Origin: Escherichia phage vB_EcoM_G5211
Sequence record: MK327947.1
DNA length: 64,000 nucleotides
Strand: one strand, 5' to 3'
Shown here: positions 1,372 through 8,384 of the stretch, one piece after another
How the letters are laid out: every line of letters begins with the position of its first letter
Position numbering within the stretch: the first letter of the stretch is position 1
Program-made: the position numbers and the translations under genes
Notes under the pieces: generated by a model
The model's database searches: none
The model's input: the letters and a program-made list of their open reading frames with translations, nothing else
Told to the model about the DNA's origin: nothing

Positions 1372-1732
1372 AGGTTGCAAGCCTATATTCTATTGGGAGC
1401 GAAAATAGATACACACAACAAAGACAGGAAGATGCAGAACATCGGTGGGTTGCTAGCCTAAATCCGGTGGCTATAATATGTGATTTCTTTTGATGCTGGA
1501 TTTATTAAAACACAACAAACAATTCCACCAATTTTCGTAGTAACTGCATGGCAAAGGGACAAATGAATGAAATGAGCGTTCATGTTGATATTGGGTCGGA
1601 TAGATTTTGTAGATATACAGATCTGGTGTATGCCGACCTTGTTATGACATTCCAGCGTGACGCTAGCGGTAATTTTTGGTTTTGGTACGCTGTTCCCTGA
1701 ATTAACCCAAAATTCTCCATAAGGAGGAATGC

Positions 1733-1885
1733 ATGAGTAAGAAAGAAAACAGCTATGTTATGACTCGTAAGGAATACAACGAATTGATGTTAGCATTAGC
1801 TTATGCAATTATTCGTTCTGATCATGCAATTAATCTGGTAAACAAAGTTAACCGTAGCGTTGATAATGTTTCTAGGAAGAAGTAA
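1733..1885 (+). CDS. small hypothetical protein (50 aa), not in the ORF track
   Basis: ATG preceded by AGGAGG at 1723-1728; translation MSKKENSYVMTRKEYNELMLALAYAIIRSDHAINLVNKVNRSVDNVSRKK. Confidence 0.5.
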   Translation: MSKKENSYVMTRKEYNELMLALAYAIIRSDHAINLVNKVNRSVDNVSRKK

Positions 1886-1968: not shown

Positions 1969-3210
1969 ATGACTCATATTTTTACTGAACTGTTGCGGGA
2001 ATCTACTTCCTCAGTAGCTAACCAGACAGCGCGACCGCAACTATTATCATTAACTCGCGCGGTAAACAACCTGATTTTCTCTGATCTGGTAGCAATCCAG
2101 CCAACGGATCAACCAGTATCTGCATTGTACGGCCTACGTTATCTTAATCGTGATGGTCAGATGACTTTCCGAACTGCTGCGACCTACGGTGGCGCGGCTG
2201 GTGATCGCACAGAGATTGAAGAGTTTTCAAAAGAAAAATCTTATGACGAAGGCGCACTGTTCAAATCAGGCGATGTTGTATACGAAGTTGTGACCGCTGG
2301 TACAGTCGGTGAAGATGCCGAAACTCCAGAATCTGCAATCTTTAAAGGCGTAATGACAAACAAAATTCGTTTCTATAGCGATTGTGCATCGGTAGAATAC
2401 TTTGAAGATAAAAACACCGAAATTGCGTCTACCTCTATGCAGTTTGACAAGTGGCAAGTTAATGTAGGTTCTCGTAAACTGAAAACCTCGTTCACCACTG
2501 AATTAATGCAGGATCTTGAGGCAAGCCAAATCAACTCTGAAAACTCTGTAATTGATCTTCTGGCTACTGTTGCTTCCGAAGAGATCAACAAAGATATTAT
2601 TCAGAAGTTGATCACTGTATCATCTCGCTATAAAATTAAAGGGATCACCCCTGATGGCGTACTTTCTCTCGTTAGCGTTCAGGATGCACCAACACAATCG
2701 CGTGAACTTTACCGCTATGCTTGCGAGATGAGCAATCAAATGTTGCGGACTTCCTCCTTTGCTGGTACATACGTTTTGGCGTCTTCTCGCGTGGTTGGCC
2801 TCCTGCAATCATCCGGTTGGATGGAAGAAACCGACAATGCTCTAAGCGAAGGTCGTCTACGTTGCGGTCTGGAAGTGTACGCAGACACGACAACACCTTT
2901 CGATTATATGCTCGTTGGTTGTAAGCACATGATCGGTGATATGGAGAGTGTCGGTTCTCTGTTCTACTCCCCATATACAGAAGCCGACGGCGCTGGCGCG
3001 TATAAGAGCGTAATTGACCCTAATAGCTTCCAGCATCATGTAGCTATTATGAATCGTTATTCACTCTCTGTCAACCCATACACATCAAAAGTTGATCAGG
3101 AAGAACACCAGGTCATCAAGGGTGACGATTGGGGTAAAATGGCTGGACGTTCAGAAATGTCCTACATTTTAGGAATCGAACTGCCACCACTTGAGATTGA
3201 CAACGCTTAA
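1969..3210 (+). CDS. 24: capsid vertex protein gp24
   Basis: Translation from the internal ATG (MTHIFTELLREST..) parallels T4 gp24 in length and motifs (NPYT, YSPYTE); the track ORF starts at an upstream TTG. Confidence 0.9.
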   Translation: MTHIFTELLRESTSSVANQTARPQLLSLTRAVNNLIFSDLVAIQPTDQPVSALYGLRYLNRDGQMTFRTAATYGGAAGDRTEIEEFSKEKSYDEGALFKSGDVVYEVVTAGTVGEDAETPESAIFKGVMTNKIRFYSDCASVEYFEDKNTEIASTSMQFDKWQVNVGSRKLKTSFTTELMQDLEASQINSENSVIDLLATVASEEINKDIIQKLITVSSRYKIKGITPDGVLSLVSVQDAPTQSRELYRYACEMSNQMLRTSSFAGTYVLASSRVVGLLQSSGWMEETDNALSEGRLRCGLEVYADTTTPFDYMLVGCKHMIGDMESVGSLFYSPYTEADGAGAYKSVIDPNSFQHHVAIMNRYSLSVNPYTSKVDQEEHQVIKGDDWGKMAGRSEMSYILGIELPPLEIDNA

Positions 3211-3798
3211 CTAAATATCTAACCAAGACAAGTCAGATCCGCCAAAGATTTTTTCGACGGCGGATCTATTTTCTTGATGATATAAGTTAAAACATGGTAT
3301 CCCATGTCTACGGGCAACATAAACAGCAATTCTAGTTCCTCCCGAAACGATTCCATTAACTTCTTTCGCCCAAAATATCACACAATCTACAGGGTCATCA
3401 AGTGTCTCACCTAAGACTTGAGCAACATTTCTAGAAAACAGATTTTGCATGTATAACGGTATAGAACGAGGATTATCATAAACGTGTTCTAATTCATCCA
3501 TCGCCAGATTTTTTTGTTCTAAGGTTTGCCATGCAATCACATCATGACCGTTATGCTTGTGGTCATAAAACTTCCAATTTGGAATGAAAATTTTTCTATA
3601 ATCTGGATCGTAATACTTCATGAAAGCATTGTCCATACCGTAAGCCCCTCCAGAATGCGCTACAACGCGATTTTCTGACAATACCCTCCCAATGGTACTA
3701 GCCATTATCAAAATGTCGCTAGGCGCTTTTCTAGAGCCTATTAAAGCACATCTACGAAGTGGTTTTACTCCAAATAGATCTTGTAACTGGTCAAACAT
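3211..3798 (-). CDS. hypothetical protein, SLOG/DprA-like Rossmann motif
   Basis: 195-aa ORF with GGAGGA RBS; motif ALIGSRK..VVAHSGGAYGMD resembles the DprA/LOG-type Rossmann signature. Confidence 0.6.
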   Translation of the reverse strand: MFDQLQDLFGVKPLRRCALIGSRKAPSDILIMASTIGRVLSENRVVAHSGGAYGMDNAFMKYYDPDYRKIFIPNWKFYDHKHNGHDVIAWQTLEQKNLAMDELEHVYDNPRSIPLYMQNLFSRNVAQVLGETLDDPVDCVIFWAKEVNGIVSGGTRIAVYVARRHGIPCFNLYHQENRSAVEKIFGGSDLSWLDI

Positions 3799-3951
3799 AA
3801 TATTTCCTCCATAGAAAGCAATATCATACTACAAGTTAATAACAAATACAAGTATCCGCGTAGCGGAAGCGAGCACAGCGAGCAATAAAAACACTTCCAG
3901 TAATTGATTAATAAATGTTCGAAACAAATTTTTATTATTCTATAAGATAAG

Positions 3952-3977
3952 TCTTCGTTTTGATCATAATTTAATCA
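3952..3977. repeat. 26-bp perfect direct repeat, copy 1
   Basis: tcttcgttttgatcataatttaatca; identical copy ~150 bp downstream with similar flanks. Confidence 0.7.
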
Positions 3978-4100
3978 CACATGTAAAAACTACACAAAAG
4001 GATATCGCTTCGCGAACTCCTACGGAGTATAACATTTGTGTTACAATATGTAGTGATTAATAATTAACCAAAGATACATTTTCTATGTTCTAAAGATCTT

Positions 4101-4126
4101 TCTTCGTTTTGATCATAATTTAATCA
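4101..4126. repeat. 26-bp perfect direct repeat, copy 2
   Basis: Identical to 3952-3977; both lie in a ~400-bp non-coding gap. Confidence 0.7.
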
Positions 4127-4180
4127 AACAGTATTAATATTGTGCACATGTAAACTAAAATTATGTTAATAACATATACA

Positions 4181-4205
4181 AAAAAAGCCGCCCCGAAGGA
4201 CGGCT
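4181..4205 (-). terminator. intrinsic terminator (UUCG tetraloop) on the - strand
   Basis: Minus-strand RNA AGCCGUCC-UUCG-GGGCGGCU followed by U6, just after the stop of 4214..4651. Confidence 0.6.
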
Positions 4206-4213
4206 AATGTTAA

Positions 4214-4651
4214 TTATTTGTTGATAACGATCTGATTTCGGCGAATGGTAACATTACTCTTAGAGATGATCAGATCATCCGGCACTACGTTAGTTTTGTA
4301 TGGTTGGAAGCGAACAAGCATCTGATTGCGTTTAGACCCTTCCTTAATCTTGATTTCCATCTGGATATTGTTGCCTACGTGAGCAACCGCAATTTCACCT
4401 TTATTCTCATAGACCCACTTGCTGGTAACGTCTCCAGCAAAAGCCTTAATAACTTGCAATGCTTCGTCGTATGCGGTAGAGCTGTGAACTTTCAGAAGGC
4501 CAGCCGTAGCAAGACGGGAGCAGGTGATCGCCGGAGATTGCCAAACATCAACATTAATTTGCTCAATCAGAGTAACACCGCCCTGATCAACTGCTTTGAA
4601 TGCTTCGAACATTGCCTTTTTCATTGCTACGTGGTTTTTACGGAATTTCAT
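4214..4651 (-). CDS. hypothetical protein (145 aa)
   Basis: ATG start with GAGGTGA RBS; no motif recognised. Confidence 0.7.
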   Translation of the reverse strand: MKFRKNHVAMKKAMFEAFKAVDQGGVTLIEQINVDVWQSPAITCSRLATAGLLKVHSSTAYDEALQVIKAFAGDVTSKWVYENKGEIAVAHVGNNIQMEIKIKEGSKRNQMLVRFQPYKTNVVPDDLIISKSNVTIRRNQIVINK

Positions 4652-4697
4652 AATTAGTCACCTCTATTGATTAGTTATTCAGAATATTAATTACAAA

Positions 4698-4973
4698 TCA
4701 GGACATTGCCCGTTTGAATGCGTCCATTATAACAGTGTTATTTGGCTTGTCAACACGTTTTTGAACTTTATTTTTAAATTTTTTGTTGATGTGGTGTTTA
4801 CGATAAACAACCTTTTCACGGTTGGCGTAAGCCTCGCGTGCATCTTTTACCATCAACCATGCCTTAGCCGCATCTTGTCCGCTGATCCCGCCAATCTTTT
4901 TAGCAATATCAACAAAATTAAGACCGTGGTCTTCTCGTAGCATGTAAACCATTAACGCTGTTTTCTTGTCCAT
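4698..4973 (-). CDS. hypothetical protein with helix-turn-helix-like segment (92 aa from internal ATG)
   Basis: The internal ATG overlaps the stop of the upstream ORF (TGATG), suggesting translational coupling; the track ORF extends to 5081. Confidence 0.55.
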   Translation of the reverse strand: MDKKTALMVYMLREDHGLNFVDIAKKIGGISGQDAAKAWLMVKDAREAYANREKVVYRKHHINKKFKNKVQKRVDKPNNTVIMDAFKRAMS

Positions 4974-5371: not shown

Positions 5372-6586
5372 TTAAGCAGGATGCATTTCACGAATGCGTA
5401 GAACTCGCTCTAACGTCTCTCGGTCCAGTTTATGTAACTCTTTGGAATGATACATGAAACCATTGCGAGATTCCATGCAAGTGCAATCACTATATTTTTC
5501 TTCCGCTGCCGCGATTGTCTCCAGATCTTTGGCGTACTTGCTGGTTGAATAAACTTCTCGATCACGCCACTCTAACCCAGCCTCATTGAATTTAACAATC
5601 TCGTCAAATACCCACCATCCAATGTAGATAAATGAAGTTTTGCGCCACGGGATCGGGTGTACGTAACGAAACATTTTAACAACTTCCATTGAACATTTTC
5701 GGCTTGTACTTGCTGCAACTTCTACTGTTTCATCTTCGATCTGTTGATATAGTTTAGCAACACACCAGAATTTGGCTGTGTCATCGTAAGTAGCACTCTC
5801 TTTGAACAGATGACCGTCTGGCATGATAGAAAATCCTTCCAGTGCTTCGCCGGCCTCACTACCGATTAGAGTCGGTGACGGTTGCCCTTCGCGCTGCAAA
5901 TACCAGTTATATTTGATCGTCAAATTAGGCATACCGCTAGAATCGCCTACAATGTCCTCTGACACAACATAATTAAGTGATATCTCATTACCTAGTGCCA
6001 CGGTCTTTGATTCCACCACATCCTGATCTACGTTCATTGTTGCCAGCATGATTTTAGTCGATGCGCTAGCGGCTGAATCTTCCGACTCACCCCACACTTT
6101 TACAGTATACAAGCCGTTTTTATCTGCTGTAAATTCTCGGATTGTAATATCCTGTTTTGTGTCTATAACGTCTTCGCCCTTACTCCAACTATAATGTAGT
6201 TCATAGTCGTCTGCTGGAGTCTTCCCACCAGAAAATTTTACTGTTGCATGTAATTCTACGTCTTTTTGTGATGATACGTAAAAATGCTGCGGTTCGGTGA
6301 TATTTACGATTAATTCAGCTTCTTCCATGAGGAAAACTTCAGATTCTACTGATTCCGTCGTATCGGTATCTTGTACCGTTACTTTATAGCTACCCGCATT
6401 TTCACTTGTTGCGTCTGCTACAGTTAGCGTAGCTGTGTTATTTTCATGCGGTTGGTCGTCTTTTGTCCATGTATATGTCAAATTGCTGGGTAATGGTTCG
6501 TCACCCGCTACAGTCGCCGTTAAGGTGAAACCATCTCCAGCAAGAAAACATCTTTTGTTAGATTGTATTGATACTGTGAAAGCCAT
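5372..6586 (-). CDS. hoc: Hoc, highly immunogenic outer capsid protein (Ig-like repeats plus capsid-binding C-terminus)
   Basis: 404 aa; repeated Ig-like segments (..YTWTKDD.., ..YSWSKGED..) and C-terminal GWWVFDEI..ESRNG motif as in T4 Hoc. Confidence 0.85.
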   Translation of the reverse strand: MAFTVSIQSNKRCFLAGDGFTLTATVAGDEPLPSNLTYTWTKDDQPHENNTATLTVADATSENAGSYKVTVQDTDTTESVESEVFLMEEAELIVNITEPQHFYVSSQKDVELHATVKFSGGKTPADDYELHYSWSKGEDVIDTKQDITIREFTADKNGLYTVKVWGESEDSAASASTKIMLATMNVDQDVVESKTVALGNEISLNYVVSEDIVGDSSGMPNLTIKYNWYLQREGQPSPTLIGSEAGEALEGFSIMPDGHLFKESATYDDTAKFWCVAKLYQQIEDETVEVAASTSRKCSMEVVKMFRYVHPIPWRKTSFIYIGWWVFDEIVKFNEAGLEWRDREVYSTSKYAKDLETIAAAEEKYSDCTCMESRNGFMYHSKELHKLDRETLERVLRIREMHPA

Positions 6587-7614: not shown

Positions 7615-7652
7615 TTTGTATACTGTATTTATTGCATACGGAGATTTTTACT

Positions 7653-8384
7653 ATGGCTAAAAGATTTCATTATGTTTATGAGATAAAGAATCTTGTAAAC
7701 GGCAAGCTGTATATAGGTAAACATTCTACTAACAATATGCATGATGGATATATGGGGTCTGGTGACCTTCTTCGTGCTGCATTTGAAAAATATGGCATTG
7801 AGAACTTCGAGAAGCGCATATTAAAAATGTTTGATACCGAGCAGGATGCTTACCTATACGAGAAAGAACTTGTCACTGTTGACATTGTAAAAGATCCCAA
7901 TTATTATAATGTAGTTACTGGCGGTCGTTATGACGGAGACCAGGTATACTCAGACTCTGTACGCGCTAAAATGTCTTCTTCTGCCAAAGAGCGCGTAGAA
8001 CGTGATATGAAAACTGGAAAACTAAAAAAAGCAATAGTAGGTATGCGAGAGAGTGTTTCCGGTAGCTCATGGTATAATGACGGTGTTAAATCTATACGAG
8101 TTCGAGATGGAGAAACTCCACCTGACGGATTCGTCAAGGGTAATTTACATGCTGGGTGGGACCATATAGAATGGACGGAGGAACGCAAAGCCGCTAACAG
8201 GGAAATATGTCTAAGACAAGTCCAAAAGGATCGTGAGTCCGGTGCTCTCGCCGAGCGTGTAGCAAGGCTTAACGATTTTCATACTGGCAGTAAGTGGTAT
8301 AACAACGGGGTAGTTAATAAGGTCGTGAAACGCGGTGACACCCCTCCTGATGGTTTTGTTCTTGGAAAACTTGTTAAAAGGTGA
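7653..8384 (+). CDS. segD: GIY-YIG homing endonuclease, Seg-like (segD position)
   Basis: N-terminal HYVYEIKNLVNGKLYIGKHS GIY-YIG motif; GGAG RBS; duplicated GDTPPDGFV segments near the C-terminus. Confidence 0.75.
   Translation: MAKRFHYVYEIKNLVNGKLYIGKHSTNNMHDGYMGSGDLLRAAFEKYGIENFEKRILKMFDTEQDAYLYEKELVTVDIVKDPNYYNVVTGGRYDGDQVYSDSVRAKMSSSAKERVERDMKTGKLKKAIVGMRESVSGSSWYNDGVKSIRVRDGETPPDGFVKGNLHAGWDHIEWTEERKAANREICLRQVQKDRESGALAERVARLNDFHTGSKWYNNGVVNKVVKRGDTPPDGFVLGKLVKR

Follow-up and report, generated by a model that had tools for sequence, protein, structure and literature searches.

Genomic context of the DprA-like gene

The window analysed here is a 64,000-nucleotide stretch of Escherichia phage vB_EcoM_G5211 (MK327947.1). 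The source genome is a Krischvirus, i.e. an RB49/Phi1/GEC-3S-like T4-related coliphage, and of the 58 phage records matched by bases 2800-4700, 56 show 99-99.9% identity to this segment. The locus under study comprises the following features:

1969-3210, plus strand: gene 24, encoding the capsid vertex protein, convergent with the DprA-like gene
3211-3798, minus strand: stand-alone DprA-like coding sequence (SLOG superfamily), 195 aa, ortholog of Phi1 ORF164
3806-3810, minus strand: Shine-Dalgarno sequence GGAGG, 7 nt 5' of the DprA-like ATG, read from the sequence
3799-4213, minus strand: non-coding leader/promoter region of the DprA-like gene, 415 nt
4186-4205, minus strand: strong intrinsic terminator after the 145-aa ORF (scan: 8-bp stem, six G-C pairs, T7 tail)
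4214-4651, minus strand: 145-aa ORF corresponding to Phi1 ORF165, at the rnlB position of sister genera, with no Pfam match
4698-4973, minus strand: gene 24.3 (DUF2774), a synteny anchor (Pfam E = 9e-29; Phi1 annotation)
5372-6586, minus strand: hoc, encoding an Ig/PKD-domain head decoration protein, a synteny anchor (Pfam; Phi1 annotation)

The DprA-like ORF extends from an ATG at 3798-3796 to a TAG at 3213-3211, and its stop codon is directly abutted by that of gene 24. The sequence-only reading of this stretch had placed a protein with the strings GSRK and AHSGGAYGMD in the gene 24-hoc interval, at the position where T4 carries rnlB (RNA ligase 2, Rnl2), and it was borne out on each of these points. 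Both strings were found in the 195-aa minus-strand ORF (residues 21-24 and 47-56, respectively), this ORF abuts gene 24 with the 145-aa ORF, gene 24.3 and hoc located beyond it, and T4 rnlB is likewise positioned tail to tail with gene 24. The same convergent arrangement with gene 24 was observed in phages STML-198, KP179, Pm5461, PS2 and T4, with rnlB as the convergent gene in T4.

The G+C content of the DprA-like gene (~0.39) is similar to that of its neighbours, and in a one-genome-per-species collection, bacterial close relatives of the protein were confined to two metagenome-assembled contigs; recent horizontal acquisition was rejected. The adjacent 145-aa ORF displayed no similarity to Rnl2 when searched with five Rnl2 proteins (tblastn), and no homology emerged to genes that separate rnlB from the DprA-like gene in other phages. 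Relatives carry ORFs of 142-151 aa at the corresponding position.

Beyond hoc, the next gene on the minus strand is inh; two plus-strand genes come after it, a GIY-YIG seg-like gene and uvsW. The seg-like gene (7632-8384, plus strand) encodes a 250-aa GIY-YIG (SegE-like) homing endonuclease and lies between inh and uvsW, which is the T4 segE position. As Phi1 has no gene at this location, the mobile endonuclease represents a presence/absence polymorphism within Krischvirus. The longest uvsW ORF, with a GTG start at 8335, overlaps the end of the seg-like gene, so that the true uvsW start is probably located a few codons downstream. In the gap between genes 23 and 24, where T4 has segD, two 50-aa ORFs (Phi1 ORF161.1 and ORF162; 1548-1885, plus strand) were identified, neither of which gave a family match.

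Upstream region and expression

Three elements were recognized in the leader of the DprA-like gene: a 5-bp G+C hairpin at 3855-3867, a 38-nt repeat that occurs twice, and a TTCGCGAA palindrome. When this leader was examined, no T4-type late promoter (TATAAATA) was found before the DprA-like gene; the same motif is present at 1924, just before gene 24. Since a terminator lies upstream and a late promoter is absent, the sequence suggests that the DprA-like gene is probably expressed from its own early or middle transcription unit.

Comparison with relatives (L034:5597-6000, L033:5675-6000 and L018:2040-2461), whose DprA-like proteins share 49-86% identity, revealed that the length of the leader (326-415 nt) and, in part, its sequence are retained. 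The conserved blocks consist of the TTCGCGAA(GCG) palindrome, a twice-repeated TGATTAAAtTATGATCAAA element and GCTCGCTGTGCTCGCTT. The hairpin exhibits compensatory base pairs (TCCGC/GCGGA, CCCGC/GCGGG, TCGGC/GCCGA and ACCGC/GCGGT) and is followed by a T-rich run and a TAGTATGAT -10-like box. The two 38-nt direct repeats (3944-3981 and 4093-4130) are 89% identical, lie 149 nt apart and share TTAAATTATGATCAAAACGAAGA, read on the minus strand; duplicated promoter or operator elements are a possible interpretation. The conserved leader as a whole may act as an attenuator/terminator combined with a promoter, or may encode a small RNA. No Rfam family reached threshold in the 415-nt leader, and its folding energy was no better than that of shuffled sequences (z = -0.24).

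Family assignment and predicted structure

The DprA-like protein was shown to match PHROG 768 with an E value of 3e-60 (204 bits), residues 15-186 being aligned to profile positions 4-180 of 191. It is a full member of this family, from which it shows no difference. PHROG 768 is labelled 'DprA-like DNA recombination-mediator protein', and the same label is given by RefSeq to the orthologs of phages Phi1, GEC-3S, KFS-EC and ECD7. The name is a label by homology, and the function that it implies is a predicted one. The family, the fold class and the ortholog label are thus already present in public databases, and computational surveys of viral SLOG/DprA proteins already exist.

Homologs were detected by tblastn in at least 1,432 phage records, with hosts including Klebsiella, Pseudomonas, Escherichia, Vibrio, Aeromonas, Acinetobacter and many others. 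A search of the family profile against 1.84 billion cluster representatives returned 4,319 clusters (50% identity) at E <= 1e-3, nearly all of which are stand-alone proteins of ~180 aa. Matches of this strength and number lie well outside what chance could produce. The closest cultured relatives of the Krischvirus protein are the Rnl2-linked ones (37-46% identity), while relatives outside the family Straboviridae share at most 34% identity.

Structure prediction using AlphaFold2, based on a 138-sequence alignment, produced a confident model (pLDDT 96.4, pTM 0.91) representing a single domain with one short N-terminal helix. The predicted fold is a three-layer alpha/beta, Rossmann-like arrangement with a five-stranded core sheet, as expected of SLOG proteins, and all nine top Foldseek matches corresponded to HpDprA. 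DprA (PF02481) was the sole Pfam match, at 22.2 bits against a cut-off of 29.6 and across residues 15-60 only, and the NCBIfam dprA model TIGR00732 scored 14.3 bits against a cut-off of 191. The family profile matched DprA chains at E values of 6e-6 to 1.6e-5, compared with 0.22 for LOG. Among the 138 relatives, 97 matched PF02481 at E <= 0.01 (best E 8e-7) and 18 matched 'SLOG cluster 4', while none matched YpsA or YAcAr (PF06908 and PF10686) or LOG (PF03641). Based on the Foldseek, Pfam/NCBIfam and family-profile results, the protein represents a phage family of its own, placed within the SLOG superfamily on the side of DprA but outside the curated DprA models. The proposal of a SLOG/DprA-like Rossmann protein, for which profile search and structure prediction had been suggested as checks, was therefore confirmed by the predicted fold, the HpDprA matches and PHROG 768.

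DprA/Smf proteins (PF02481; 3MAJ, 4LJK/4LJR and 3UQZ) represent the best structural and profile match, with a shared Rossmann (SLOG) domain in which both single-stranded DNA (ssDNA)-pocket motifs and the SGGAxGxD and GGT loops are common to the phage protein. Sequence identity is nevertheless ~20%, the scores fall below the Pfam/TIGRFAM cut-offs, and the phage protein lacks both the N-terminal SAM and the C-terminal winged-helix/DML1 domain, which are common but not universal in DprA/Smf. Unlike DprA/Smf, it is encoded by lytic phages with their own UvsX/UvsY, and it is not known to load RecA or UvsX.

DprA cores also occur in the antitoxins ShosA and PsyrA (RqlI) of the ShosTA and PsyrTA systems, and the phage protein might conceivably act as an 'orphan antitoxin', a mimic that neutralizes ShosT- or PsyrT-type toxins in the way that the phage NADAR protein (gp30.3/AdfN) acts against DarTG1. 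This reading is considered improbable. The likeness is limited to the generic DprA core: the PADLOC matches are weak, are confined to residues 15-61, where the generic N-terminal motif lies, and do not surpass the DprA match. ShosA and PsyrA are longer, multidomain proteins (ShosA being 308 aa with extra domains) with an adjacent toxin gene, whereas no ShosT (PRTase) or PsyrT (RecQ-like) toxin partner was found among the neighbours of the phage gene, i.e. gene 24 and the 145-aa ORF without a Pfam match. Moreover, a distribution across at least 1,432 phage records and many hosts is far broader than targeting of a single toxin-antitoxin family would lead one to expect, and no experimental link is known.

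Conservation of the DprA pocket motifs

Residue conservation was scored across 138 family members, with identities down to 26%, and the following pocket elements were located in the gene:

3730-3738, minus strand: G21-S22-R23 codons, DprA pocket motif 1 (G-S/T/A-R; motif from PMC3950713, conservation from the 138 members)
3631-3654, minus strand: S49-G-G-A-Y-G-M-D56 codons, glycine-rich loop after strand 2 (DprA 'SGxAxGxD')
3427-3441, minus strand: L120-F-S-R123-N124 codons, DprA pocket motif 2 (F/L/Y-x-x-R-N/D)
3334-3342, minus strand: G153-G154-T155 codons, loop after strand 4

Residues G21, G50, D56, R123, G153, G154 and T155 are invariant in the 138 members. At least 90% conservation was observed for R23, P26, S49, A52, G54 and P73, as well as for N124, Q127, G130, A158, A162 and N171. 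The polar or glycine-rich loops that follow strands 1, 2 and 4 in SLOG proteins are represented by G21/R23, S49-D56 and G153-T155, respectively.

In the structure of HpDprA with ssDNA, one base enters a small conserved pocket that is gated by Arg52 (Wang et al., PMC3950713), and the combination of G-S/T/A-R and F/L/Y-x-x-R-N/D has been proposed as the signature of ssDNA-binding DprA domains, in contrast to the PGGxGTxxE motif of LOG proteins (PMC3950713). Both signatures are present in the phage protein. R23 was aligned with HpDprA Arg52 (G-T-R52) and the S49-D56 loop with HpDprA SGGALGVD, while motif 2 was likened to HpDprA Phe140-Asn144 by motif pattern and fold. The LOG motif is not formed, the corresponding stretch being S-G-G-T-R-I-A158 with an alanine at the position of the catalytic glutamate. 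The phage protein therefore differs from the LOG cytokinin riboside 5'-monophosphate phosphoribohydrolases (PF03641), to which PGGxGTxxE belongs and to which it has no Pfam match. Of the 'DprA/LOG-like' fold that had been suggested from the sequence, the DprA side is upheld by motifs and Foldseek; the LOG catalytic motif is missing.

What selection has maintained in the phage family is the DprA pocket, and this is our main ground for inferring that a single-stranded nucleic acid or a nucleotide moiety is bound with a base in the pocket.

Relation to RNA ligase 2

The absence of a ligase KxDG motif had led the sequence-only reading to regard the gene as a replacement for rnlB rather than a diverged copy. 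Direct reading of the protein sequence revealed no K-x-D/H-G motif, and no ligase family matched the protein even at E <= 10, in agreement with the first observation. When five Rnl2 proteins were searched by tblastn against the 64-kb window and the complete Phi1 genome, no Rnl2 homolog emerged; the top match (E = 0.095) fell within DNA ligase gene 30. Krischvirus is thus truly devoid of rnlB; Phi1 carries rnlA, pseT and 30.3. The clear RNA ligase 2 match that the earlier reading had set against its own proposal was accordingly looked for in the protein, the window and Phi1, and none was found.

To survey the co-occurrence of the two genes, annotated phage records were combined with a tblastn search using a chimeric Rnl2/DprA-like two-protein query, and viral contigs were scanned with a seven-sequence alignment, yielding six loci. 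Both halves of the chimeric query were joined at one place in 429 phage records. Among the records listed, those of the T4 type matched the Rnl2 half only and those of Krischvirus the DprA-like half only. The following phages carry rnlB and the DprA-like gene in the same orientation, with rnlB directly upstream:

Salmonella phage STML-198 (Gelderlandvirus)
Klebsiella phage KP179 (Jiaodavirus)
Cronobacter phage Pet-CM3-4 and Enterobacter phage UFV01 (Karamvirus)
Proteus phage Pm5461 (Bragavirus)
Serratia phage PS2 (Muldoonvirus)

In all six phages, the DprA-like gene abuts gene 24. Overlaps of 1-22 nt between rnlB and the DprA-like gene were observed in four genera examined. The pair of Slopekvirus and Pseudotevenvirus is found between srd (sigma-70 decoy) and the nicotinamide phosphoribosyltransferase gene (NAMPT) instead of beside gene 24, as was seen for Klebsiella phage K41P2 (L012:2953-7313) and Citrobacter phage IME-CF2 (L022:3001-7337). 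Either both genes relocated together or the pair was gained on two occasions. Two metagenomic relatives, with 56% and 49% identity, display the Krischvirus arrangement without rnlB, in the order inh, hoc, 24.3, an ORF of ~145 aa, a gap of 330-400 nt, the DprA-like gene and gene 24.

Because rnlB and the DprA-like gene lie side by side elsewhere, comparative genomics points to a gene pair that has undergone differential loss, and not to substitution of one gene by the other: T4 retained only rnlB, and Krischvirus retained only the DprA-like gene. The earlier view that the gene is not a diverged rnlB therefore stands, while that of a replacement does not, given the 429 records with both genes. 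The synteny with T4 rnlB is genuine as a shared position.

The two points that could speak for a highly diverged RNA ligase 2 are the occupied T4 rnlB position and the label 'putative RNA ligase' in MW748999 (phage Skers). That identity has next to no probability and was excluded by size (195 aa versus 323-339 aa for Rnl2 proteins), by the lack of a nucleotidyltransferase motif and of any ligase family at E <= 10, by a predicted SLOG Rossmann fold, and by the 429 records in which a bona fide rnlB is the neighbour of the DprA-like gene. A diverged rnlB or a remnant of it elsewhere was also rejected, as tblastn returned nothing in the ORF, the 415-nt gap, the 145-aa ORF or the rest of Phi1. T4 RNA ligase 2 (rnlB, gp24.1) shares with the DprA-like protein only the genomic position beside gene 24, their folds and sequences being unrelated; in many T4-like genera, however, Rnl2 is its operon partner.

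An Rnl2-DprA-like fusion, hinted at by a single HSP in IME-CF2 and by 'RNA ligase' labels in Pet-CM3-4 and UFV01, was rejected, since the records show separate or unannotated ORFs. Several annotation errors were encountered in the course of the survey. The DprA-like ortholog of MW748999 (L002:1912-2499) is mislabelled as 'putative RNA ligase', and the DprA-like ORF is unannotated in the Karamvirus records LT614807 (L023:4002-4544) and ON454249 (L035:2501-3050). In PP502408 (Proteus phage PL1, L029:4615-5613), vBPMCPL1_0142, which is named 'DprA-like', is NAD-dependent DNA ligase subunit A, as identified by its Pfam adenylation and OB domains.

Fusions and neighbourhoods in other phages

Ten longer family members were surveyed for additional domains. 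NADAR was present in four of them, DUF4326 in one and a complete RecJ, an exonuclease acting on ssDNA, in one. Two of the NADAR-containing members, of ~1,480 aa, combine the DprA-like domain with two other SLOG domains. These metagenomic, polyvalent-type proteins, P0017 (1,475 aa) and P0019 (1,488 aa), carry DprA-like, YAcAr and SLOG cluster 4 domains and a C-terminal NADAR domain, with ~900 residues without a family match. ADP-ribose is stripped from DNA by NADAR enzymes, T4 gp30.3/AdfN among them; its attachment is the work of DarT toxins, which act on ssDNA (PMC11257639).

Linkage to polynucleotide ligases within replication/repair modules was observed in three unrelated lineages. In the T5-like phages Vibrio phage Chester and Proteus phage PL1, the DprA-like gene is located beside or between the two genes that encode the subunits of the NAD-dependent DNA ligase, with D5 and primase genes nearby, and direct adjacency to NAD-dependent DNA ligase genes was found in ~25 records. 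In Pseudomonas phage KPP10, the DprA-like gene is flanked by genes for an ATP-dependent DNA ligase and a helicase. In Pakpunavirus, it is preceded by a PRPP-synthetase-like gene, NAMPT and a Macro-domain gene. In Pseudomonas phage Zigelbrucke (L031:1-4564), where the Macro-domain gene is annotated as 'phosphatase', this upstream trio looks like a phage cluster for NAD+ reconstitution and ADP-ribose processing. At 16 further loci, no ligase, NADAR, NAMPT, Macro or DUF4326 gene was found within 2.5-8 kb on either side, which shows that linkage of this kind is not universal; a universal conserved neighbour of the DprA-like gene was rejected on the same 16 loci.

The main rival to nucleic-acid binding is a counter-defence role, in which the SLOG domain would bind, sequester or cleave a soluble NAD+/ADP-ribose derivative, such as a cyclic ADPR signal. 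Viral SLOG domains have been predicted to sense or process soluble ADP-ribose derivatives, thereby blunting host immunity (Iyer et al. 2022, PMC9503650), and the NADAR, DUF4326 and multi-SLOG fusions and the NAMPT/Macro neighbourhoods are consistent with such a role. The viral SLOGs of the NAD+-ADPr network, the ThsA SLOG sensor, YpsA and YAcAr belong to the same superfamily and display the same kinds of fusion (NADAR, DUF4326). However, the 2022 prediction rests mainly on YpsA-like viral SLOGs (PMC9503650), and the phage family, unlike that branch, groups with the DprA/LD branch and scores consistently as DprA-like and at no point as YpsA or YAcAr. The catalytic motif of LOG enzymes is missing, NADAR acts on ADP-ribosylated DNA, so that the fusions require no soluble ligand, and no NAD-related neighbour is present at the Krischvirus locus. 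We therefore regard this role as unlikely, though deserving of serious consideration.

Proposed function

The reading that we tentatively favour, while judging its chances to be somewhat short of even, is that the protein binds single-stranded nucleic acid by holding a base in its pocket, as an aid to break repair, joining or recombination. It is the best supported of the readings because of the DprA motifs, the RecJ and NADAR fusions, the location in replication/repair modules and the operon with Rnl2. DprA/Smf proteins of jumbo phages have similarly been proposed to be extra ssDNA-binding proteins (Iyer et al. 2021, PMC7824862). In the literature searched, no experiment on a stand-alone phage DprA-like protein is reported.

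According to this proposal, a minimal single-domain Rossmann protein of the DprA type would grip single-stranded nucleic acid, DNA or RNA, as the DprA domain does. Its pocket, formed by G21-S22-R23, the S49-D56 loop, the helix residues L120, R123 and N124, and G153-G154-T155, would accommodate one flipped-out base and the neighbouring phosphates. With neither ligase nor LOG-type hydrolase chemistry of its own, the protein would have an accessory physiological role when phage nucleic-acid breaks are repaired, joined or recombined. It would be co-expressed with RNA ligase 2 in sister T4-like genera, and in Krischvirus would act without RNA ligase 2, from its own non-late transcription unit.

Several findings count against nucleic-acid binding. 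The protein fails to reach the cut-offs of the DprA models in Pfam and NCBIfam, it lacks the SAM and winged-helix domains of canonical DprA, and Krischvirus already possesses UvsX, UvsY and gp32. The calculated pI of the protein, 6.4, may also speak against binding, although the family median of 8.6 makes net charge an ambiguous guide. In addition, small-molecule ligands fit equally well in view of the multi-SLOG and NADAR polyproteins and the NAMPT/Macro neighbours.

A more specific role, to which we assign a distinctly low probability, is that of a dedicated ligase partner, of Rnl2 in T4-like phages and of NAD-dependent LigA in some T5-like phages, sensing a nucleotide moiety at broken or blocked ends. 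Its targets could be bases flipped out at nicks or gaps, abortive ligation intermediates with a 5'-adenylyl group, or ends or bases that carry ADP-ribose; by recognizing them, the protein would channel RNA or DNA damage inflicted by the host into repair. If true, this would represent a new class of accessory factor and provide a pathway for the long-enigmatic phage Rnl2.

Significance

The gene described here belongs to a large family (at least 1,432 phages and ~4,300 clusters) with a confidently predicted fold, a strictly conserved pocket and a function that is putative by homology. What is new is its status as a companion of rnlB, and not its replacement, within a conserved operon that occurs at two genome positions with overlapping genes in four genera; no description of a conserved rnlB/DprA-like operon was found in the literature searched. 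This removes the notion that Krischvirus swapped rnlB for something exotic, and it exposes annotation errors, namely the 'RNA ligase' label and the unannotated ORFs in several Karamvirus records. The rnlB/DprA-like operon offers a handle both on the purpose of phage RNA ligase 2 and on minimal DprA domains outside natural transformation.
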